Positions 14,083-56,843 of a DNA stretch of 64,000 nucleotides are shown in pieces. Position 1 is the stretch's first letter. The number at the start of each line of letters is the position of its first letter. The DNA lies in NCBI RefSeq assembly GCF_048403405.1, contig NZ_CP183129.1. The stretch is one strand, 5' to 3'. The DNA comes from Escherichia coli. GTDB taxonomy: Bacteria; Pseudomonadota; Gammaproteobacteria; Enterobacterales; Enterobacteriaceae. A program made the translations under genes and the position numbers. The notes beneath the pieces were generated by a model. That model searched no databases. It was not told the DNA's origin and saw only the letters and a program-made list of their open reading frames with translations.

Positions 14083-15762
14083 GTGAACAAAATATTTTCC
14101 TCACATGTGATGCCTTTCCGCGCTCTGATCGACGCTTGCTGGAAAGAAAAATATACTGCCGCACGGTTTACCCGTGACCTGATTGCCGGGATAACCGTCG
14201 GGATTATTGCTATCCCGCTGGCAATGGCGTTGGCTATTGGTAGTGGTGTGGCACCCCAGTACGGTTTATATACCGCAGCTGTTGCGGGGATTGTCATTGC
14301 TCTGACGGGTGGGTCACGCTTTAGCGTTTCCGGTCCGACTGCGGCATTTGTGGTAATTCTCTATCCCGTTTCGCAACAGTTTGGACTGGCAGGACTGCTG
14401 GTCGCGACACTCATGTCAGGTGTCTTTTTGATCCTGATGGGGCTGGCACGTTTTGGACGCTTGATTGAATATATTCCGGTTTCCGTGACCTTAGGTTTCA
14501 CCTCGGGTATCGGGATCACCATCGGTACCATGCAGATTAAAGATTTTCTCGGTCTGCAAATGGCCCATGTCCCGGAGCATTATCTACAAAAAGTCGGCGC
14601 ATTATTTATGGCGTTGCCGACCATTAATGTGGGTGATGCTGCCATTGGCATTGTGACGCTTGGCATTCTGGTTTTCTGGCCGCGTCTGGGCATTCGTTTG
14701 CCTGGTCACCTTCCGGCCTTGCTGGCTGGTTGCGCGGTGATGGGGATTGTTAACCTGCTCGGCGGGCATGTTGCTACCATCGGATCGCAATTCCACTACG
14801 TTCTGGCAGATGGTTCTCAGGGTAACGGTATTCCGCAACTGCTGCCGCAACTGGTACTACCGTGGGACCTGCCCAATTCAGAATTTACCCTCACCTGGGA
14901 TTCTATTCGCACACTGCTGCCTGCGGCATTCTCAATGGCAATGCTCGGCGCAATCGAATCTCTGCTCTGCGCCGTGGTACTGGATGGTATGACCGGAACG
15001 AAACACAAAGCGAACAGCGAACTGGTTGGACAGGGACTGGGGAATATCATCGCCCCGTTCTTTGGTGGTATTACCGCTACAGCTGCCATCGCGCGTTCTG
15101 CCGCTAACGTCCGTGCCGGGGCAACTTCCCCTATCTCGGCGGTGATCCACTCTATTCTGGTTATTCTTGCCCTGCTGGTACTGGCACCGCTGCTCTCCTG
15201 GCTGCCGCTTTCCGCCATGGCTGCCCTGCTGTTGATGGTGGCGTGGAACATGAGTGAAGCGCACAAAGTGGTCGACTTGCTGCGTCATGCGCCGAAAGAT
15301 GACATCATCGTCATGCTGCTGTGCATGTCGCTGACTGTGCTGTTTGATATGGTTATTGCCATCAGCGTGGGGATCGTGCTGGCATCGCTACTGTTTATGC
15401 GTCGTATCGCACGTATGACTCGCCTGGCACCGGTAGTCGTAGACGTTCCAGACGATGTTCTGGTTCTGCGCGTTATTGGTCCGCTGTTTTTTGCTGCCGC
15501 TGAAGGCTTGTTCACGGACCTGGAGTCACGTCTTGAAGGCAAACGGATTGTGATTCTGAAGTGGGATGCCGTTCCGGTACTTGATGCTGGTGGTCTTGAT
15601 GCGTTCCAGCGTTTTGTGAAGCGTCTGCCCGAAGGATGTGAACTGCGCGTGTGCAACCTGGAATTCCAGCCACTGCGCACTATGGCTCGCGCAGGCATTC
15701 AACCGATCCCGGGCCGCCTTGCTTTCTTCCCGAATCGTCGCGCGGCGATGGCGGATTTATAA
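14083..15762 (+). CDS. dauA: SLC26/SulP-family C4-dicarboxylate transporter DauA (YchM) with STAS domain
   Basis: 559 aa; polytopic membrane region plus C-terminal STAS-like region. Confidence 0.9.
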
Positions 15763-47206: not shown

Positions 47207-48900
47207 ATCCCCCGGTTAATCATACAGGCGGCAAATGCCCGGAAAGCGTTGCTCATGCTATTGTCGCTGGCGTCGGCACGAATATCATTGAGTTTCTGGC
47301 GCAACGTGGTCGCAAGATCAGGGTTATCGACAGCGATATCGTCAAGCAGGGCGTTACTCAGGTTGAGCTCGTTATCAAGGTCTGCAGCGGCAGCGGTAAT
47401 TTCATGATCTGCCTTTTGCGTTTCTTGATAAACCCGATCGGCTGTTTCGCTTGCTGGGCGAGCCGTTTCATCAACCTGCCGTGCCGGATTCTGTATGCGA
47501 TGGATGGCGCGTTCACGCAGTGCCGGTTTGTGCAGTTCATAGAAGGGCTCAACATCTGGGCTACGTCCTTCCATCATGTGTGCCAGCGCAGCGCGATACG
47601 CCTGCTGGTTCACGCTCCAGTCAGCATCCCTGATGGCGCTTGCGGCAGTGCGAACTGCGCCAGCGACCGGCGACATCTGCATGCCGTCCAGGATCTGCTG
47701 CGCACGCTCGGAAATGGTGACTTTCAGGTCGTCGGGGATCTCGCCGCGGGAAATCTGAGACTGGCGCCAGCGCGCCTGCTCTGCTGTCGCGTTCTGCTCC
47801 AGCGATGTGTTGATCTCCTGATTGCGTGCAGCGATGGCGTCTTTCTCGGCCTGAATCTCTTTCAGTGCCCTAGAGCGCGCATCCTTAAACTTCATCCGCT
47901 TCCCCTGATACTTTTTGGTGCGCTGTTGCAGCGTCGCATCAAGCGAGTCAGCATGACGTTGATTAGCCGCAAGCTCGGCACGCAGGTCGGCAACGTTACC
48001 GATCTGCCCGCTCTGTAACTCCTGCTGGCGCGCCATATAGTCAGGAACCACGTCGTCATAAGCCCGGCTGTATGCGTAGCTCTCCGCTTCACTGGAAATG
48101 GCCGCCGCCAGATCTGCGTTAGCGCCAACCTCAGGGATATTCACGCCCGCCGGAATGTTGTCAGGCGTTATCACCGGGGTTGGCTGCGCATCGCCAGAAA
48201 ACTCCGGGGACTCTCCCGTTGCAGCATCGGGAACGCGACGCGGTCGCACGATATCGGCGATAAGGCCGCCGCCGGCATGCATTAGACCGCCAGCCATCGT
48301 GTTAAAGAAAGTACTTTCCAACGCGTTGCTATAGGTGAAGTCGTCACCTTCCGCCGCCGCTGCCAGCCCGGTAAGCGGCACGGTCACCACCGCCTGCGCT
48401 GCCCCCATGCGTGCACCAGCAACAAATCGCTCGCCAAATCGGCCAAGCACAGAAGCTGCCTTTGCTTCTCCAGCGAACGGAACCAGCGCCAGCGCCACGT
48501 TACCAGGATCTGCCATTGAACCAGCTAGGCTGGCTGCGAAATTAAGCGGCGTGGCTACCCACCCGCTCGGTGCCGACATCGCAATCTGCTGGCGTGCCAG
48601 AGAATCTTTGCGTTCGGCAATAACATGATCGAGAAAAGCCTGCGTAACGCCAGAATCTGGCACGTTTATGCTCTTTACGCCGTACTGCTTCAGGAGCTCA
48701 TCTGCGTCCTGCTTACTGATAACTGTAGAGTTTGGGTCATTCGCCAGCGAGTCGGCCTGCGCAAAGCGGTAGCCGGACATGACCGGCCCCTCTTCAAATC
48801 CCTGCTTAAGGGAAGAAAGCAGCGATTCGCCAAGCCCTGCTGGCGCGTTGCCAATTGGCTGGTTAATGCCCTGTCCCGGATCATCTGTGTAAATTGGCAT
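47203..48900 (-). CDS. Large Ala/Gly-rich protein of unknown function (565 aa), second gene of cargo operon
   Basis: Translationally coupled on both sides; contains hydrophobic Gly/Ala-rich segments. Confidence 0.75.
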   Translation of the reverse strand: MPIYTDDPGQGINQPIGNAPAGLGESLLSSLKQGFEEGPVMSGYRFAQADSLANDPNSTVISKQDADELLKQYGVKSINVPDSGVTQAFLDHVIAERKDSLARQQIAMSAPSGWVATPLNFAASLAGSMADPGNVALALVPFAGEAKAASVLGRFGERFVAGARMGAAQAVVTVPLTGLAAAAEGDDFTYSNALESTFFNTMAGGLMHAGGGLIADIVRPRRVPDAATGESPEFSGDAQPTPVITPDNIPAGVNIPEVGANADLAAAISSEAESYAYSRAYDDVVPDYMARQQELQSGQIGNVADLRAELAANQRHADSLDATLQQRTKKYQGKRMKFKDARSRALKEIQAEKDAIAARNQEINTSLEQNATAEQARWRQSQISRGEIPDDLKVTISERAQQILDGMQMSPVAGAVRTAASAIRDADWSVNQQAYRAALAHMMEGRSPDVEPFYELHKPALRERAIHRIQNPARQVDETARPASETADRVYQETQKADHEITAAAADLDNELNLSNALLDDIAVDNPDLATTLRQKLNDIRADASDNSMSNAFRAFAACMINRGM

Positions 48901-48901
48901 G

Positions 48902-51523
48902 TTATCGTCCTGATTGCTGGCCGTTCTGGAAAATGTTAATCAGGTTGTCGCGCTGACTTTCTGCGCTGTATTCCTTAGACTGTCCGGGAGTATATTTCAC
49001 CGGAGTATCAATGAACTTGGTAATGCTGTTCCATACTGATCGGTTGGTTGTTCCCAGTTTCGCCAGATCGTTGAACGGCACCGTAATCGGGTTGCCGTCG
49101 GCACCGTTGACGATCAGCCCGTTGAGCATCAGGGTAAGTCCTGTTTCGTCGCTGTTGGTAACCCACTGCGCATTATCACGAATGCGGGAGATACTCTGCT
49201 CACGGTTGACCTCATCAGGTAGCCTTGGGTCACCAATAAGCGGCATAATCTGATCTGCTGACAGGTTTTTCAGATACGCATTGGCACCATCGTTAACGTC
49301 ACGAATATCTATCCCTGCACGCTTAGGTAGCCGCCAAGTGCCATTGGTCTGATACTGCTCGCCGAGGATGTCCTGATACGCCTGTTTTGCTGCATCAGAC
49401 GCCGACATTCCGCGCTGCATGTTGATGTAAGTAAGTCGTTTTCCCTGCTCGTTGAAGTTATTCCACACGGCAGTGCCACCAGGCTGAACAACCATCGTGC
49501 CAGCAAAATCTTTCGATTGGTCATTCCATGACGAGTCGGCGCTATCCGCGTCGGTTTTCTCAAGACTGCCGCGTAAGTCAGCAGTTTTAACGCTACGGTT
49601 TTGCCAGAGCGCATTTGCCGCGCGCGGGTTCTCGGTAGCCATGACAACCTGCAACGCAGGATAAGCGCTCTTCTGAACCTGCTGCATCACCTGATCCGAG
49701 TATTTTCCGAACGACTGCGCCACCGACTGAATGGCCTTTACGCTAGATTCCTGCGTGTTGTCAATACGCTGCAGTACGTCGTTGACCATGGACTCCGGTA
49801 AAACTTTTTTGCTCATTATCCCCAGGCGGTCTTTTTCAGACTGTATGCGGGAAACTAGGTATTCACCAGATGAAGGGTCATTGAGGTACTGCTGGAATGC
49901 AGCCTGCACAACCGGAGAGTTTTGTTGCAGCCATGCCCCCGGATCCGCTTCCCGCGCCTTCAGTACCTGCCCAAGCTTGACCTTTGCCGATGCATAAAGC
50001 TCGGCTTTGTATTTAAAGTCAGGGTCGTTTTCCTGCGGTGCCATTGCCTGCACGGCGGCGGTACCCTGCTGGACGTTGCCCTGCATGATGGTCTGATAAA
50101 CAGGTTGTAGCGTCATTGCCTGCTGGTATTGCTGGAAGGTTTTTTCCATCTGCAGGCGCTCGGCAGGCGCTGCCTGAAGCGGCATAACGGCGGCCCATTC
50201 GTGCGCTGAAATAGGCGTCACCTGCTTACCGGCCTCAATTTTGGATAGGTCGTCCTGCATTCGACTCTGTAGCGCAACGCGACCGGCTGAAGCCTGCATG
50301 TCGTACATGCCAGCAACCTTGCTCATCATCTGCGACTTTTTGTCCGGACTCATGGCGTTCCAGAATGGCTGTGCGATGAGGTTTTCCATCGTCGCAGATC
50401 CAGGAATAGCTCCAGCACTGCCAGTTACTTTTGCCACATAATTGCGCGTCTCGTCGTATGGGATAGCTGCGGCAAACTGGGCGTTACTGACTTCGCCTGT
50501 GCGCGGATCGCCAATCTGTTTAATCCAGCCGTCAACCTTTCCTGGGCCAGCGTTATAGGCAGCTACTGCCAGAACCGGGTTATTGTCGTATTTCTTCATC
50601 TGCGCGCCGAAATAAGCTTGCCCCAAGCGGGCATTATAGCGCGGGTCATTCAACCATTTATCTCGGTCCCACGGCACACCAGCAAGGCGGGCAGCTTCGG
50701 GGCCAGTATCTTCCGTCACCTGCGCTACGCCAACAGCGCCTTTTGGCGACACCAGAGGTGTTCCGTCCTTTCCGTACTGATTTCCGCCACTCTCCTGCCA
50801 GATTATTGCAGAGAATAACTGCGCCTCACTCGGTGTATCGGTTACCTCAATCTTGCCGTTCGGCCCCATCATCTGTTGATACATCGGCACATACCACGCC
50901 TCCGCCGCACCGTTCGCGGCATTCTCGCGCCACGAAACCCAGTTCTGTTCGATCTCTTCCTGACTCTGGCCGTGTGCTTCGCCGTAAGCGATGATGCTAT
51001 GATATGCCTTCAATCCTGCCTGGTTTGCCATTGTCGGGTTACGGAACTGCATCGATAGGTTTTTTAGTGTCGCATCCTGCATATCCGCCTCATACTGGCG
51101 AACCTGTCCTATTTCGTACCTCCCAGCCTGCGTAGTGAACTGAATGCGCTGCTGCTGCGCCTGCTGCATGAAAGCATTACGAGCCTGTTCATCCGGCAGC
51201 GACATAGCCAGTTGTTCGACCTGAGCATCAAACTGCTGCGTATACTCCTGACCTTTTCCAATAGCATTTTTCCCTTTCAGGTTAAGCAAACCTGTTTCAG
51301 GGTTATTCAGCAGATCGCTGCCTGTCTGACTGAGTTTAAGGGATGCCTCCTGAACCAAGGCAATATTGGCACGCTGTTTTGCCTGACCCAGAACATCAAT
51401 TGCCTCTGCTCCTGCACGAACAAAAGCATCACTAATACCTGGCTGAGAAAACGTCTGCAAGCCTGCTGACTGAACTCCACGGCTCTCAACCTGACGTCCG
51501 GATACTGTTGGTACGACTGGCAT
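48902..51523 (-). CDS. Large protein (873 aa) with an internal lytic-transglycosylase (SLT-like) motif
   Basis: GGAGG ribosome-binding site before the ATG; motif AIIWQESGGNQYG...GVAQV...AAYNAGPGKV at about aa 230-330, resembling soluble lytic transglycosylase active sites. Confidence 0.8.
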   Translation of the reverse strand: MPVVPTVSGRQVESRGVQSAGLQTFSQPGISDAFVRAGAEAIDVLGQAKQRANIALVQEASLKLSQTGSDLLNNPETGLLNLKGKNAIGKGQEYTQQFDAQVEQLAMSLPDEQARNAFMQQAQQQRIQFTTQAGRYEIGQVRQYEADMQDATLKNLSMQFRNPTMANQAGLKAYHSIIAYGEAHGQSQEEIEQNWVSWRENAANGAAEAWYVPMYQQMMGPNGKIEVTDTPSEAQLFSAIIWQESGGNQYGKDGTPLVSPKGAVGVAQVTEDTGPEAARLAGVPWDRDKWLNDPRYNARLGQAYFGAQMKKYDNNPVLAVAAYNAGPGKVDGWIKQIGDPRTGEVSNAQFAAAIPYDETRNYVAKVTGSAGAIPGSATMENLIAQPFWNAMSPDKKSQMMSKVAGMYDMQASAGRVALQSRMQDDLSKIEAGKQVTPISAHEWAAVMPLQAAPAERLQMEKTFQQYQQAMTLQPVYQTIMQGNVQQGTAAVQAMAPQENDPDFKYKAELYASAKVKLGQVLKAREADPGAWLQQNSPVVQAAFQQYLNDPSSGEYLVSRIQSEKDRLGIMSKKVLPESMVNDVLQRIDNTQESSVKAIQSVAQSFGKYSDQVMQQVQKSAYPALQVVMATENPRAANALWQNRSVKTADLRGSLEKTDADSADSSWNDQSKDFAGTMVVQPGGTAVWNNFNEQGKRLTYINMQRGMSASDAAKQAYQDILGEQYQTNGTWRLPKRAGIDIRDVNDGANAYLKNLSADQIMPLIGDPRLPDEVNREQSISRIRDNAQWVTNSDETGLTLMLNGLIVNGADGNPITVPFNDLAKLGTTNRSVWNSITKFIDTPVKYTPGQSKEYSAESQRDNLINIFQNGQQSGR

Positions 51524-51619
51524 TAGTAACCTCCTATTTTGAATCGGGAGTCAGAATTCATAAAACCTGAGTTAGATAACATTGGCGTCCCTCTGCTTTG
51601 ATGCTGTACCAGCGATTCA

Positions 51620-51826
51620 TTACTCACCCCCCGATGCAAAACCATTCTGATTAAGCCAGGCGTTTACGGCATGTCTGACAATCTGCGCCACGCCTGGTAA
51701 TGGCTGATCAGGGTGATTGTTCACATGGTCGATTCTGTACTGCTTAATGCGCATCACGGTCTGTGCATCCAGATGAACGGAACCACCTCTGACATCGCCT
51801 GTGTTCAGGTCGTTAATACAATTCAC
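51620..51826 (-). CDS. Small protein (68 aa), possible DNA-binding regulator upstream of the cargo operon
   Basis: ORF only; C-terminal helix-like AQIVRHAVNAWL; function is inferred from position. Confidence 0.4.
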   Translation of the reverse strand: MNCINDLNTGDVRGGSVHLDAQTVMRIKQYRIDHVNNHPDQPLPGVAQIVRHAVNAWLNQNGFASGGE

Positions 51827-51918
51827 AGCAATTTCCTCTTACTGACTAAACTATGCACATTATTGATCTGAAAAAGTGGTAGATAAACATATTTCTATCA
51901 CAAAAACAGATTGATTGA

Positions 51919-51942
51919 TTTCAGCCCCAAAAAAAGCCGGAT
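51919..51942 (-). terminator. Rho-independent terminator separating the replication module from the cargo operon
   Basis: Minus-strand hairpin agccgg-agcaat-ccggct followed by U7 (plus-strand A7 at 51919-51925). Confidence 0.75.
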
Positions 51943-52192
51943 TGCTCCGGCTCTGTGCTTACTTCTGGTAGTTACGCCATACTGATTTCCCGATCCCATC
52001 TATCCCCATTTCTTTTTCAGTGCGTTTAAGCGACCGTTTCAGGTCTTCTAAATTATCCGGTTGCTTCGGTGGCCTCTGTGCCTTCCTGGAACATTCCAGT
52101 CGTCGCATTGATATGTAATACCGTTCCTTATCAGTTTCCCAACTGCATTACTTCACCCCATCGCGCCGCCGCTCTTCGGTACAGGGTTTTAG

Positions 52193-52609
52193 TTAGCCTC
52201 CGACTCTTCCGTAGCGCTGTTCTGGTGGATTCACATAGCCCCTTTCTTGCAGGTATTCGCGAATATCAGACATCAGGAGACGGTTAACCGTGCTCTTGTC
52301 TTTTCTCCGGTAAAGGCGTCTGGTGATCATGAAGTAGTTAGCAATGACCTCCGGTATATCCCTGACGCTGATACATGCTGTATGCTGGTCAATAGCTTCA
52401 ATCATCTCTTCACGAGTTACAAAAGTCTGGCGTAAACGAGTGATCACACCATGTACATCTGAACGATCATTTATACGCTTATTTTGGCGCTTCGCGCTCT
52501 CGACTGTGACACTGACAATAATGTCAACTCTTTGTTTTTCCGCCATTTCATCCACAATGTGATCACCTGCACGGCGACCATGTGCGTGATCATTTCTTAC
52601 TATTTCCAT
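52193..52609 (-). CDS. Hypothetical protein (138 aa)
   Basis: ORF overlapping the FinO-like gene end by 20 nt; the true start may be the internal MAEKQ. Confidence 0.45.
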
Positions 52610-53087
52610 TCATCTCCTCCAGTAGTTTTCCTGCGTGCGTCTGTTGTAGTGGTGTTACCTCGCCGCACGGCTGGCCTTTCAGGTCGTAACGCGCGCCACC
52701 AGCTACCAGGGCGCGGTAATAGCGCGGAGTCTGCACATAACGCGCCAGCGTTGCGCGTAGTGTTCCCTGTCCGAGTGAAATACCTCTCGCGGCAATATCC
52801 TGTATCAGGTCGTCAAATATCCCCACCTTAAGCGGCTTAGGTGATTCCGGGCTGAATAATTCAGGCCATAGCTCAATAAGACGGTTAACGCGTCTGCGGT
52901 TTTTACGCTGCTGTTTGGTCATACGCCGCCGCGGTGTTGCTCCTGTGAGCTTCTGCTGTGTGTTCTGGTTATCTGGCATCACTTTATGCGCCGATGTGGT
53001 TTTATTCTGCTGCTGCGCCGCCTGTGCTGTTTTCTGCGGCGTGCCGTAAATGCCCTTCGGTTTTCTGTTTATGGTCAGCTTTGTCAT
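52590..53087 (-). CDS. ProQ/FinO-domain RNA-binding protein
   Basis: [14 protein letters not shown]...[35 protein letters not shown] aligns by eye with E. coli ProQ (PLKIGIFQDLVDRV...[35 protein letters not shown]). Confidence 0.75.
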
Positions 53088-53123
53088 GCCTTCCCCTGTA
53101 ATTACTCTGTTCGCTGTTGTGAA

Positions 53124-53546
53124 TTAAAACGGTATCCCGTCCCCGTACGGATCGTCGTTACCCGCCTGTTGTTTTGCCCTGTTCAGTGCGTCAGTAGCCT
53201 GCCCTTGCTGGCCTTTTTTGCCGCCCGGTCGCGCCGTTCTCGCACTGATTACGCTGTCTGCGATAACCTGCCAGCCCTGCCGCGTTTCGCCGTTCTGGCC
53301 TGTCCACTGGCTTACCTGCATGTTACCCGCCACGCTCACCAGTTCGCCTTTGTGGTGTTTTGCCAGTGCGTCGGCCTGTCTGCCAAACGCCAGGACGGAT
53401 AACCACATCGTCGCCGTTCCGTCATCTGCCTGATTGCATGGAAGGGGGACCGCCATACTCGCCATCGCCATTTGTGTGCCCTTGCTGGTGGTCTTTAACT
53501 GCGGGTCAGCCACCAGCCGCCCGTAAGCTGATATTTGCGCCGTCAT
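53124..53546 (-). CDS. ssb: Single-stranded DNA-binding protein (SSB-like)
   Basis: OB-fold-like core (YGRLVADPQL ... WLSVLAFGRQA) and the acidic C-terminal tail DDPYGDGIPF, which resembles the SSB DDDIPF tip. Confidence 0.7.
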   Translation of the reverse strand: MTAQISAYGRLVADPQLKTTSKGTQMAMASMAVPLPCNQADDGTATMWLSVLAFGRQADALAKHHKGELVSVAGNMQVSQWTGQNGETRQGWQVIADSVISARTARPGGKKGQQGQATDALNRAKQQAGNDDPYGDGIPF

Positions 53547-53609
53547 GCTGTTTGTTCTCCGGTTTTAACGTGATAGTTACGCTTGTTTACACTCTTACAG
53601 TGAAATTTT

Positions 53610-53732
53610 GCGGGTTACAATCGCACATTTGCGGGTTATAACTGCCGTTTTGCGGGTTACGTGCGGGTTATTGATTTCCTTTTTAATCATGCAGTTAATT
53701 AACTTATGCACAGGATAACCCGCATAACCCGC
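53610..53732. repeat. Iteron cluster 2: four direct GCGGGTTAY copies (53610-53671) plus two tandem inverted copies (53715-53732)
   Basis: Read directly; lies between the primase/helicase stop and the ssb start. Confidence 0.85.
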
Positions 53733-53756
53733 AACTTTTTACCTCACACAGGGAAG

Positions 53757-55883
53757 TTAATCTTCTGCTTCAGGCTGGAACATCAGCACGTAAAAAATAT
53801 GCTGCTTCCCGCCAATCCTGCCGAGCGCCTTTTTCTTGTAACGGCGGTCGCCTCCCGCTTCCAGCATTCCGGCAGCACTCAACGCGCGGGCAAAGTGAGA
53901 CGGATTAAATCCCTGTGCTATCTCACCCTCAAACACATGCGGGAACGTGTAAAAACGGAACTCGTCATCTTCGTTTCTGATACTCCCCTTTCTGTATCCG
54001 GCAAGGTCTTTAATCGGTAAATCACGCTCGTCGCTGTTTGGATAGGGAAGGTATCGACTGAACCCGAACGACGACAAAAACGCCTCAGCCTGTTCAACCA
54101 TCTGTTTAAATTCCCTGTTGCCCGTGCCGAATTCCTTCACCCAGGCATTAAAGTTATGCTGAACTGCATCACGGCACGCCTGAACATCCCAGCCTGTAAC
54201 ATGACCGGAAAGCACAAGCGCGGCCTCCAGTACGGCGAATCTTTCCCCCACACGGTGAACCTGCTCGCCGTAGCTCTCCGGTATCAGGTTGCGCCACCGC
54301 TCGCGACATGCCCTTACCGCGTCCTTTGCCTCCTGCTGGTGACCTGCCAGCCATTTAACCCACTCACGACCTGCCGCCCCGTGATTTTCTGTCCAGGCAT
54401 CTTTTAACGCGTCTGCGTGCGCCTTTCCGGTGCTGTATTCGTGAAACTGCGATGCCTTTTCCATCGGCACGTTAAGCAGACGGACAAGCTGCCCCGCTTT
54501 AATTTTTATCCCTTCCGTTTTGAGGAATGTTTCAACGTCCATTTCTCCGGTGCTGATTGCCACCGTGCGCCAGTGTTTTATCTCCCTGTTGCCGCCGTCC
54601 TTCGCCCCCTGTAATTTCCCGGAACCGTTAAACAGCGTATAGGCTGACGTGGACACCTCCCGCGCGTTTCCGGCCTGGCCTATTTCATCCAGGGGTAACA
54701 GCCCGTCATTATGTGCTTCGGCCTCGTTGGCGATACCTAACGCCGTTCCGTACCAGGTCAGCCGTTGCGCGTCCGGCTCTCCCCATAAACTTGATGCAAT
54801 GTTCTGTGTGGTGGTTTTACCTGCTGATGATTGCTCAAAAAGATGAACCCCGAAGCCGTCAGCACCCACCAGCCCGATTAATGGTGCGGATAGCGATACC
54901 GCCACACCCAGCATCATGGACGGATTACCACCAGCCAGCCGTGCCACGGTATCGCGCCAGCCCTCCGCTGTTCCCGCCACGGAATAGCCATTAACAGCGG
55001 CAGTTTTTCCGGTAAACAGGATGGGTTTCTCTGATTCACCAATGACCGAACCATCCGGCATGATGTACGCACCAAAATGCCACCCCGTTGTTGTGCTTAA
55101 CTGCCATTCCTCATGGTTTCCGCTTAACTGCATCCAGTCAGCCAGGATAGCCCTGTATTTGCCGTTGGTCGTCACGTTAAGGCCGTGGTCTTTCAGCAAC
55201 CGCCAGCCGTCACGGTCACCAATGCCTCCGCACGGGACCGCCATTGTAATGACCTCATGGTTTGCTGGTTTTTTCCAGCGCATCACGCGGTAATGCTCTT
55301 TGCCGATTGTTCCTGTTCCCAGTAGTTCAAGCGGAGAACATAACCACGTCTCAGGCCGGATAATTTCGCCTGACTGCTTGTCCACTTTGGGCGTTACCCA
55401 GAAAACACCATCGACGCGACTTTCAACACGAGGCTTTAATTCGTCATCATAATTTCCGGTGAAATTTGTCTTCGCCGGAAGGTTGATCACCAGACTGTTA
55501 CCGCGTTCCGCATCATCCTTCAGTCCAGCCATGCGCGGTGTCCAGTCCTCCGGCTGCTGATCAACAAAGCTGCGGTAGCAACGCGCCTCCTTCACACCCG
55601 CCACTGCAAGCAGTGTCGCTATCTGTGTAAGGTGCTGCTCTGATATTTCACCAGCACGATAAACGCGCACGTAATAGCGCCCTTTGTCGATGATTTGCGT
55701 GTCTGCCAGACTCGCCAGTTGTTCCGGTCCAAGAATAACTGGATGTGTATCATCTGCCGCAATATGCTTTCCGGCCCATTCGCTCCACTCTTTCGCATGT
55801 GCCCAGGCATCACTACCCGCAAAGATAATCACCTCCGTCATTTTGTCTTTCGGCTGGTGCTTTAAATTCGGTGCGCGTTTCAT
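53757..55883 (-). CDS. Phage/plasmid primase-helicase (P4 alpha-like replication protein)
   Basis: 708 aa; Walker A-like EQSSAGKTT; size and position downstream of alpA and upstream of the iterons. Confidence 0.7.
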   Translation of the reverse strand: MKRAPNLKHQPKDKMTEVIIFAGSDAWAHAKEWSEWAGKHIAADDTHPVILGPEQLASLADTQIIDKGRYYVRVYRAGEISEQHLTQIATLLAVAGVKEARCYRSFVDQQPEDWTPRMAGLKDDAERGNSLVINLPAKTNFTGNYDDELKPRVESRVDGVFWVTPKVDKQSGEIIRPETWLCSPLELLGTGTIGKEHYRVMRWKKPANHEVITMAVPCGGIGDRDGWRLLKDHGLNVTTNGKYRAILADWMQLSGNHEEWQLSTTTGWHFGAYIMPDGSVIGESEKPILFTGKTAAVNGYSVAGTAEGWRDTVARLAGGNPSMMLGVAVSLSAPLIGLVGADGFGVHLFEQSSAGKTTTQNIASSLWGEPDAQRLTWYGTALGIANEAEAHNDGLLPLDEIGQAGNAREVSTSAYTLFNGSGKLQGAKDGGNREIKHWRTVAISTGEMDVETFLKTEGIKIKAGQLVRLLNVPMEKASQFHEYSTGKAHADALKDAWTENHGAAGREWVKWLAGHQQEAKDAVRACRERWRNLIPESYGEQVHRVGERFAVLEAALVLSGHVTGWDVQACRDAVQHNFNAWVKEFGTGNREFKQMVEQAEAFLSSFGFSRYLPYPNSDERDLPIKDLAGYRKGSIRNEDDEFRFYTFPHVFEGEIAQGFNPSHFARALSAAGMLEAGGDRRYKKKALGRIGGKQHIFYVLMFQPEAED

Positions 55884-56182
55884 TTCTTGCCCCTGAATGC
55901 GTTAATCATGTTCTTTATTACCTGAATATTTGCCCGTGCTTTCTCTTTACTGGTGGGCTTACTGCGTGGTACTGCACATACCAGTGAAAAATCACGCCGG
56001 AACTGATGAACGGGCATCACACAGTCATAGTCGTACCCTGCGCGGCGGTATGTAATGTGCCGTTCATACACGGAATTAATAACCACGCTGTCACCATATT
56101 TATCCCGGAAAATATCCCCGATCCTGATTTTCGGGTGAGTCTGTCCGCTGGCATTTAAGCCAGTAAATTTAATCTTCTTCAT
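55880..56182 (-). CDS. Hypothetical protein (100 aa)
   Basis: ORF with 4-nt overlap onto the primase start. Confidence 0.5.
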   Translation of the reverse strand: MKKIKFTGLNASGQTHPKIRIGDIFRDKYGDSVVINSVYERHITYRRAGYDYDCVMPVHQFRRDFSLVCAVPRSKPTSKEKARANIQVIKNMINAFRGKK

Positions 56183-56184
56183 GT

Positions 56185-56442
56185 TTATTTCCCGGTGTGA
56201 GGTTCTTCTTTATATTTATGGGCTAACAAATCTGGTAATTGCCTGTATTTATCCTCGGCAATATATTCAGAATAATCGACAGCACTGTTCAGTATATCTA
56301 ACGCCGTTTCATGCTCCAGATTCGAAACTATAAGGAACGTTGCTACTTTTAGCATATTCGCGATATGCAAAAGAGCATCAATTTCATTTTTTGGCGCTTC
56401 ACTGAATTTTTGCTCCAGAAGAATAAATCGTTCATCACGCAT
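56185..56442 (-). CDS. Hypothetical protein (85 aa)
   Basis: ORF 2 nt upstream of the 100-aa gene. Confidence 0.5.
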   Translation of the reverse strand: MRDERFILLEQKFSEAPKNEIDALLHIANMLKVATFLIVSNLEHETALDILNSAVDYSEYIAEDKYRQLPDLLAHKYKEEPHTGK

Positions 56443-56638
56443 AGTATTCCCCCTGACGGATGCGGGCAGTAAATACCATCACGCAGCCAGCCGGGGATTG
56501 CTGACGGGCTTCCTGTTCGCTGGCGGCCTCGATGTGTATTACGCGTGGTTGTGCGGTGCTCAGGGCGATAAAACGCCAGATGTATTTATTCAGGTTGTGC
56601 GAGTCCCGCCCTTGCGGGTGTGTGGTATGATTTAACAT
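56435..56638 (-). CDS. Hypothetical small protein (67 aa)
   Basis: ATG (complement of 56636-56638) preceded by GAGG at the proper spacing. It is the 3-prime segment of an otherwise implausible 345-aa ORF in the track. Confidence 0.4.
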   Translation of the reverse strand: MLNHTTHPQGRDSHNLNKYIWRFIALSTAQPRVIHIEAASEQEARQQSPAGCVMVFTARIRQGEYYA

Positions 56639-56735
56639 AGCTACCTCGATACGCTTTCTATCGTTGGTGGTTAGACGCCCTGCATGTGTTGCGAGCACTG
56701 CGGGGCGTTGCTTAATTTGAGCAATGCAACCCAAA

Positions 56736-56771
56736 CTGTGCGCACAGATTAAAATCATGTGTGCGCACATG
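56736..56771. promoter_or_regulatory. Two GTGCGCAC-core palindromic operators 20 bp apart in a divergent promoter region
   Basis: ctgtgcgcacag (56736-56747) and catgtgtgcgcacatg (56756-56771); further copies at 56805-56816 (half site) and 57069-57081. Confidence 0.6.
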
Positions 56772-56843
56772 TCAATACTTAACTTCTCACTTTTTTTGCT
56801 GTATTGTGTGCGCCCATCAAATCCATTTAAGTGAGGTGTACCA

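Follow-up and report, generated by a model that had tools for sequence, protein, structure and literature searches.

The window analyzed in this study is a stretch of 64,000 nucleotides of the Escherichia coli contig NZ_CP183129.1, and its segment 52590-55883 carries, on the minus strand, the genes of a 708-aa replicase, a single-stranded DNA-binding protein (SSB) and a FinO-domain protein. We consider it probable that this segment represents the replication module of a phage satellite of the phage-inducible chromosomal island (PICI) type, which is integrated beside dadX. Based on its sequence and modeled structure, the replicase was assigned to the MCM-like initiator helicases of the Cch/SaPI-Rep type. 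The occurrence of FinO-domain proteins on mobile elements is already known, as is the replicase with SSB as a recognized PICI replication module; the region is otherwise a textbook example of such a module, and all three genes of the identical trio are already correctly named in RefSeq ("DUF927 domain-containing protein", "single-stranded DNA-binding protein" and "ProQ/FINO family protein"). The refinements made here are a Toprim domain that appears to be dead and an apparently accessory status of the FinO gene.

The island and its replication module

In NZ_CP103479.1 the integration site is empty, with window position 42756 joined directly to approximately 61768, and in the strains without the island the joint falls between a leucine-rich-repeat protein gene and dadX. 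The same element was found at the dinD-yicC locus of NZ_CP148435.1, where it aligned over exactly 42757-61806 with 99.7-99.9% identity. The presence of so closely matching an element at a second chromosomal site indicated that it is a discrete, recently mobile island of 19,050 bp, a size at the upper end of the usual range of Gram-negative PICIs. The island ends lie at window positions 42757 and 61806, and at 14756 and 33806 in locus L001. The two insertion sites (by dadX, and dinD-yicC in other strains) share just a short imperfect core, about TTCTGAATCTG, and one integrase evidently uses both of them.

The first half of the gene order on the minus strand was found to be integrase, a 216-aa open reading frame (ORF), AlpA, Rha, AntA/B, Icd-like, an 85-aa ORF and DUF4222, with two small plus-strand ORFs of the YlcI/YnfO type between the AntA/B and Icd-like genes. 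The second half comprises the replicase, SSB, FinO-domain protein, a 138-aa ORF, a frameshifted perC, a terminator and four large late genes. The published layout of Gram-negative PICIs reads Int-AlpA-Bro zone-Replication (Primase, SSB)-Late zone (PMC10111431), and with EcCICFT073-type elements, EcCIMP1 and cf-PICIs the present island has in common the order Int-AlpA-Bro/Ant zone-Icd-DUF4222-replicase-ori-SSB-PerC-late zone. In addition to an integrase, AlpA, and a replicase with its origin in canonical order between flanking attachment sites, the island was shown to hold no complete virion, packaging or lysis gene set but just four epsilon15/phiV10-like virion-protein genes; neither a capsid, portal, terminase or TerS gene nor a lysis gene was found in its RefSeq annotation and PHROG matches. 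Meanwhile, it differs from the other Gram-negative PICIs in having a second iteron cluster and in carrying no TerS or capsid gene.

An earlier note on this DNA had read the 708-aa product as a primase/helicase. The reading frame was present as described and its domain matches lay far beyond chance; the helicase part of that description stood, being supported by the DUF927 domain, the Walker motifs and a Cch/Rep fold, whereas the primase part was not supported, as the protein has no zinc ribbon and keeps neither the catalytic Glu nor the DxD motif. The Pfam DUF927 match spans aa 169-436 (E 3.6e-46), and the match to the PHROG "DNA primase" profile phrog_1139 (2e-174) covers this profile only from position 136 onward. 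In the PDB, the sequence matched SaPIbov1 Rep at 1.7e-14 (8tch) and SCCmec Cch at 9e-4 (5dgk). In an alignment of 46 homologues, the Walker A residues G355-K356 were invariant and the Walker B residues D399-E400 nearly so (at least 90%), and the family comprises 10,416 representative clusters at E <= 0.001. Furthermore, a Foldseek search with an AF2 model of the replicase (predicted local distance difference test score, 90.8) retrieved Cch 5dgk (E 5e-23, template-modeling (TM) score 0.76-0.78) and SaPIbov1 Rep 8tch (E 1e-21, TM 0.70), followed by MCMs. The model could be divided into a Toprim-like N-domain (aa 1-127), a DUF927/MCM-like initiator helicase core and a C-terminal alpha/beta domain. 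With SaPIbov1 Rep and SCCmec Cch, the replicase has in common the DUF927 core fold, the Walker motifs, an iteron origin adjoining the gene and the location on a chromosomal island; it differs from them in sequence (16-17% identity), in its Gram-negative host, and in its Toprim-like N-domain, which both of them lack.

Many relatives of the replicase are approximately 900 aa in length, and the closest of these, P0206 (919 aa), has Zn_Ribbon_Prim (E 4.8e-13) and Toprim_3 domains ahead of DUF927. In P0206, an example of the P4 alpha-type or Zn-ribbon-Toprim-DUF927 primase-helicases, the helicase part is 58% identical to that of the replicase, and the zinc ribbon, the Toprim Glu and the DxD are kept, while the 708-aa protein is devoid of them: it gave neither a zinc-ribbon match in the Pfam search nor a Toprim profile match. 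Its N-domain nevertheless appears to have a Toprim-like fold, in which the first strand, VIIFAG, resembles the VIIAEG of P0206. At the position of the catalytic Glu the replicase has IIFAG (A22) against IIAEG in P0206, and at that of the DxD it has YRAGE (A77-G78) against AADND; both A22 and A77-G78 were invariant in all 31 of the aligned N-domain sequences. The primase reading was rejected on these grounds, namely the lack of a zinc ribbon and the replacement of the Toprim catalytic Glu and DxD, which close relatives keep. The N-domain is thus probably a conserved and re-purposed Toprim remnant without catalytic function. If so, the replicase would be a natural case of a primase-helicase that lost the primase chemistry yet kept the domain, and this loss makes the division of labor among the replicase, host DnaG and the island SSB testable. 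The N-domain itself (about 125 aa) belongs to no Pfam family and occurs fused interchangeably to DUF927, D5_N/DUF5906 and AAA_25 helicases in E. coli islands; fragments of it are labeled "DNA primase" by NCBI.

The gap between the replicase stop codon and the ssb start codon, 210 bp in length, was found to hold six copies of TAACCCGCA, of which two are inverted and four direct, on the two sides of an AT-rich spacer, all six within 140 bp downstream of the replicase stop codon and the last three direct copies spaced by 21 bp. Exact copies of TAACCCGCA numbered 12 in the window against 0.41 expected, and none of 100 shuffles reached 12. In addition, the corresponding position downstream of the replicase is occupied in three other islands by iterons of a different sequence, specific to each island. 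This array, which had been missed in the earlier note, is arranged as expected of an island origin, and would be read by the island's own initiator.

The second gene of the module encodes an SSB, as had been proposed. Its 140-aa product exceeded the curated cut-off of NCBIfam TIGR00621 (61 bits against 53.95), matched phrog_44 (1e-39), and matched 26 solved SSB structures in the PDB, in agreement with an SSB domain of the oligonucleotide/oligosaccharide-binding fold. It is only distantly related to the SSB of the host, the E. coli SSB structure 1eqq being matched at 26.6 bits. The acidic C-terminal tail pointed out previously was confirmed: the sequence ends in NDDPYGDGIPF, and the tip DDPYGD[G/N/D]IPF is kept in three further islands (L002, L004 and L008), across three different replicase types. 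The -IPF tip of E. coli SSB serves as a docking site for many partners, including the chi subunit, PriA and DnaG. By analogy, it is a reasonable inference that the island SSB recruits host proteins via its -IPF tip, and such recruitment would fit a replicase that is unable to prime.

Taking these features together, the following mechanism can be proposed. After induction by the helper phage, the helicase would recognize the iterons, probably via its C-terminal domain, melt the AT-rich spacer and load itself. As the Toprim-like N-domain is devoid of the catalytic residues and of a zinc ribbon, priming would be left to host DnaG. The island SSB would then coat the unwound strands, and its IPF tip would recruit SSB-interacting proteins of the host, for example primase, the chi subunit of Pol III and PriA. 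The FinO-domain protein would not be a core replication factor but an optional, co-transcribed post-transcriptional regulator.

The FinO-domain protein and its distribution

The third gene encodes a FinO-domain protein of 165 aa, again as proposed, with Pfam and PDB matches far beyond chance. Its match to Pfam ProQ/FINO (PF04352; E 1.6e-23) covers aa 64-162, and the solved FinO domains that it matched are those of ProQ (N-terminal domain 5nb9, 2e-14), FinO (1dvo, 4e-11), Lpp1663, NMB1681 and RocC, the PDB entries 6s10, 3mw6 and 7rgt being matched as well. With a mass of 18.6 kDa and a pI of 10.65, it fits the small (14-27 kDa) and basic members of the FinO/ProQ family (PMC9977716). The protein consists of a basic extension (aa 1-62, pI 11.9), which has a conserved MTxLTINRKP motif and a TKRQRKNRRR run, and a FinO domain (aa 63-162), and ends 3 residues past the domain match.

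The claim that the protein aligns with E. coli ProQ across the RNA-binding core was borne out, with 38% identity over 97 residues and the equivalents of key residues on the RNA-binding face kept: K87, G89, R111, Y123, R133 and D135 align with ProQ K35, G37, R58, Y70, R80 and D82. Among 27 family members, K87, Y123 and R133 were invariant, and G89 and D135 were conserved in at least 90%. Published mutagenesis has shown that the ProQ residues, which lie on the concave face, matter for function. The description as ProQ-like, however, did not extend to the architecture. E. coli ProQ (232 aa) has a linker and a C-terminal Tudor-like domain, whereas the island protein lacks both and instead has the 62-residue basic extension at its N-terminus. 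Its score against the NCBIfam ProQ equivalog, 57.5 bits, likewise fell below the cut-off of 127. Judged by its sequence, the protein is not an orthologue of E. coli ProQ.

A closer resemblance in layout was seen to FinO of the F-like plasmids, which is also a small, basic, single-FinO-domain protein with a positively charged N-terminal extension, a location on a mobile element and the same concave-face residues; the differences are an identity of only about 32% over the domain and the location of the present gene on a chromosomal island. FopA of the IncI1 plasmid pCol1B9, like FinO a mobile-element RNA chaperone with a FinO domain, has the same layout of N-terminal extension and FinO domain (for this FinO/FopA-type architecture, see PMC7491321).

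The family of the island protein comprises 267 detectable homologues, almost all from Escherichia, Shigella, Salmonella or Citrobacter, and the identical protein is encoded on at least 1000 contigs, indicating that the finO gene is maintained. A peptide-pattern scan of one genome per species gave just two further loci, in E. albertii and Serratia oryzae. The subfamily was not found in the plasmid search, in which the best true plasmid matches were FinO itself at about 31%, and sequenced phages gave only remote matches. In the 5426 complete E. coli genomes, the ssb-finO segment was partially matched in 2408, and both genes were present at >=80% coverage in only 170.

The earlier note had counted the FinO-domain protein in an island-encoded replication set. 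Replicase, origin and SSB do form such a set, while the membership of the FinO-domain protein was found to be positional only. In a capsid-forming PICI, the helicase of which is of the AAA_25 class, the finO gene comes after SSB, and so it does in a Citrobacter island that has a D5_N/DUF5906 primase, where finO is in turn followed by perC. In a PICI bearing TerS, it comes after SSB-PerC; it stands directly after the replicase in another PICI without SSB, belongs to an SSB-FinO-PerC run in a further PICI (L015), and survives together with perC in a deleted remnant. An intact perC adjoins the FinO genes in L004, L008, L012 and L015, and finO was adjacent or near-adjacent to perC in six of the seven PICI contexts seen. 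The PICI of strain Nissle 1917 has DUF4222-primase-SSB and lacks both FinO and PerC, and a diverged FinO branch is located within the YagK/YfjJ-AlpA backbone of large genomic islands that have no replicase (L003, L011, L013 and L014). The absence of finO from some PICIs with replicase and SSB, together with its presence in replicase-less islands, indicated that it is an optional, shuffled accessory, and its association with perC is more regular than that with any replicase. The genes of the diverged branch are convergent to a UCP030791-family gene and are frameshifted in two of the four examples seen.

RNA partners and alternative explanations

FinO domains recognize a hairpin with a free 3' tail, and usually stabilize one structured antisense RNA and speed up its pairing with the target (PMC9977716). 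By analogy with FinO, FopA and RocC, the island protein would most likely grip a terminator hairpin with its 3' U-tail and thereby protect the RNA from exonucleases, and the basic N-terminal extension would help this RNA to pair with a target mRNA, which may be encoded by the island or by the helper. An island-encoded, terminator-binding RNA regulator is placed, as the most likely activity by analogy, above any specific reading of its role. The terminators at 51928-51951 (-) and about 57387-57415 (+) can be regarded as candidate ligands, and protection of the island's own 3' ends would be one of three readings, the other two being copy-number control as by FopA or PcnR and an outward regulation exerted jointly with PerC. 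The roles that had been suggested in the earlier note, regulation of antisense RNAs of the island and interference with regulation by host ProQ, may apply and are plausible. A dedicated RNA partner, if true, would add post-transcriptional control to E. coli phage satellites, for which so far only proteins, for example AlpA, Rpp and those of capsid remodeling, have been invoked, and would offer a small and genetically isolated system in which to study the choice of RNA by a FinO domain.

In the Rfam search, the promoter and terminator scans and the folding analyses of the island, no cognate RNA was found, nor was a promoter-terminator unit standing on its own. A scan for hairpins with U-tracts gave three convincing terminators, all of which end protein-coding units and none of which marks a stand-alone small RNA, and the terminator-like sites in a consensus scan were modestly above chance and mostly weak. 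Among 20 intergenic segments, notable folding z-scores were obtained only for 43400-43549 (+) (-3.08) and 51827-51975 (+) (-2.95), neither of which could be linked to the FinO-domain protein.

Several observations weigh against the reading of the segment as a PICI replication module with an accessory RNA regulator. The Toprim-like N-domain is strongly conserved, with 23 invariant positions in 31 sequences, which implies that the domain does something, and a non-canonical catalytic site in it is possible. The second iteron cluster, at 43229-43382, has a role that the model does not explain. An Rfam search over the whole island at E <= 1 gave only an irrelevant lncRNA match and no C4, IsrK, FinP or Inc-like RNA; promoter-like sites in the consensus scan were not enriched (6 found against 11.6 expected); and the strand antisense to the conserved finO 5' end showed no excess of structure (z-score -0.16), on which ground an antisense RNA there was rejected. 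The frameshift in perC means that part of the accessory cassette is decaying. Finally, helper dependence, helicase activity, iteron binding, loss of the primase activity and SSB-host contacts are elements that we infer.

It is conceivable, although unlikely, that the FinO-domain protein and PerC constitute an outward-aimed accessory regulatory cassette that lies outside the replication machinery and has as its targets host ProQ/FinO-dependent RNAs, F-plasmid FinP or helper-phage transcripts. The proximity of finO to perC in PICIs of any replicase type described above would agree with this, as would the reported action of a PICI PerC homologue on host virulence genes (PMC11773190) and the partial interchangeability of FinO domains between species (PMC9977716). 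This support is purely contextual, however, and perC is a pseudogene both here and in L009, while finO is intact in both.

Alternatively, the FinO-domain protein might be a dedicated copy-number controller, stabilizing a cis-antisense RNA that blocks translation of a DUF4222 leader and of the replicase coupled to it; we regard this as improbable. The position of finO within the replicase-ori-ssb transcription unit speaks for such a role, and in all of the island types seen there is a 4-nt overlap between the DUF4222 stop and the replicase start, which resembles the leader-peptide coupling of IncI replicons. The plasmid FinO-domain proteins FopA (IncI1) and PcnR (IncI2) are known to act in this manner (PMC9977716, PMC8053102). 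Nevertheless, the scans gave no pair of promoter and terminator antisense to DUF4222 or to the replicase start, the Nissle 1917 PICI has the same DUF4222-replicase-SSB layout without a FinO gene, and the diverged FinO branch resides in islands that have no replicase.

A broader proposal, on which we place a comparably low estimate, is that enterobacterial PICIs possess a separate clade of FinO-domain RNA chaperones that plasmids and sequenced phages lack, and which would act in the conflict among satellite, helper and host at the RNA level. Such chaperones might, for example, capture terminator-bearing RNAs of the helper phage or those dependent on host ProQ, or control the switch from replication to late genes; in an extreme version, with a primase-dead replicase, the chaperone would help an RNA transcript to prime or open the adjacent origin. 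If true, this would provide the first case, among enterobacteria, of a layer of satellite biology that is based on RNA chaperones. A literature search found no paper on FinO-domain proteins in enterobacterial PICIs; one paper mentions in passing a ProQ/FinO-like regulator in Vibrio satellite-plasmids.

That the region is a decaying prophage remnant, the genes of which no longer work together, is very unlikely: perC is frameshifted and the late genes are a mosaic in which virion genes of the epsilon15/phiV10 type are present but capsid, portal and terminase are missing, but the nearly identical 19-kb element at two chromosomal sites of different strains speaks of recent mobility, the island has an intact origin and intact integrase, AlpA, replicase, ssb and finO genes, the residues for catalysis and RNA binding are kept, and the gene order is the standard PICI order.

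Neighboring genes and other features of the island

The features of the island are summarized in Table 1. The ssb, finO, 138-aa ORF and perC genes are co-oriented, with finO starting 36 nt after ssb, and replicase-ssb-finO-perC is predicted to form one transcription unit that is ended by a canonical terminator. The 138-aa ORF gave no match in the Pfam search and a match to phrog_63 (9e-27) over aa 57-127, that is, a partial similarity to the anti-repressor (Ant) family.

Table 1. Positions of the island and its features in the 64,000-nt window.
Feature	Position	Strand	Basis or remark
PICI-type phage satellite (probable), whole integrative island	42757-61806	-	19,050 bp; integrase at right end
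Tyrosine integrase	60311-61579	-	RefSeq annotation of identical island
AlpA-family regulator	58974-59192	-	Pfam Phage_AlpA, E 6.9e-6
DUF4222 gene	55880-56182	-	ORF list and RefSeq; stop overlaps replicase start by 4 nt
Replicase, 708 aa	53757-55883	-	Pfam DUF927
N-terminal 127-aa Toprim-like domain of replicase	55503-55883	-	
Putative origin of replication	53600-53745	.	4 direct and 2 inverted TAACCCGCA iterons, AT-rich spacer
SSB, 140 aa, C-terminal tip DDPYGDGIPF	53124-53546	-	TIGR00621
FinO-domain protein, 165 aa, predicted RNA-binding	52590-53087	-	Pfam ProQ/FINO
138-aa ORF, overlaps finO end by 20 nt	52193-52609	-	RefSeq: hypothetical
perC, PerC-family regulator gene, frameshifted here	51959-52184	-	RefSeq annotation of identical island
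Predicted intrinsic terminator GCCGGA-GCAA-UCCGGC + U7	51928-51951	-	Hairpin and U-tract scan, -10.4 kcal/mol
Second iteron cluster	43229-43382	.	Same TAACCCGCA repeat

The 4-nt overlap between the DUF4222 and replicase genes was also found in L002, L008, L009 and L010, which have replicases of the AAA_25, P4-type and DNA-primase families, and probably reflects translational coupling. DUF4222 stands directly upstream of the replicase in every island type seen, regardless of the replicase class, and its product may possibly be a loader, a specificity factor or a translational leader.

The late cassette (44091-51523, minus strand) consists of four genes, with products of 873, 565, 850 and 186 aa. 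The PHROG matches of these products are full-length, and the phiV10/epsilon15 podoviruses have related virion and ejection proteins. The 873-aa SLT-domain protein is nearly identical to phiV10 gp18 over its first 135 aa and unrelated to it in the remainder; the 850-aa protein shares 23% identity with gp20, and the 565-aa protein has no similarity to gp19 yet occupies its position. These sequence relationships suggest that the satellite swaps in its own ejection proteins and that its helper is a Uetakevirus (phiV10/epsilon15-like) phage. EcCIMP1, a PICI that carries homologues of the DNA-transfer proteins of its podovirus helper (PMC11773190), likewise has late genes resembling podovirus virion and ejection proteins, whereas other Gram-negative PICIs have a P22-like or lambdoid late cassette in place of the epsilon15/phiV10-like one found here. 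PADLOC scans of ten island proteins gave zero matches, indicating that the cargo is not a known defense system. At 51850-51910, in the interval that separates the operon terminator from the first late gene, there is a long imperfect palindrome (AATCAATCTG...CAGATCAAT), within the plus-strand segment of z-score -2.95; it is possibly an operator of the late promoter.

The second cluster of TAACCCGCA resembles the first, comprising two inverted copies, an AT-rich spacer and three direct copies at 21-bp spacing. It lies approximately 10.3 kb from the first in the opposite orientation, at the island end distal to the integrase, with no adjoining replicase gene and within 1.3 kb that is unannotated in RefSeq. 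The cluster could be a second origin or a cis site like crr of P4. The possibility that the cluster is the relic of a duplicated replicase gene was considered and rejected, as no similarity was detected beyond the iterons themselves. A segment homologous to this region was found at the same distal end of L015. The nearby ORF 42772-43260 gave no family match in the PHROG and PADLOC scans. Next to the cluster, the segment 43400-43549 (+) has a well-defined minimum free energy structure of -49.9 kcal/mol, with none of 200 shuffles as stable, and the adjoining 150-nt segment up to 43699 (+) has a folding z-score of -2.28; no Rfam match was obtained for 43400-43699 (+), a region present in only about 44 complete E. 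coli genomes.

At 56737-57415, two paralogous 65-aa plus-strand ORFs of the YlcI/YnfO family, both ending in AKEQE, face the main minus-strand operon and end at a strong terminator (57387-57406). Palindromes of TGTGCGCACA are clustered at 56737-56817, in the divergent promoter region shared with the Icd-like gene, and the whole of 56737-57415 is likely a regulatory switch of the island.

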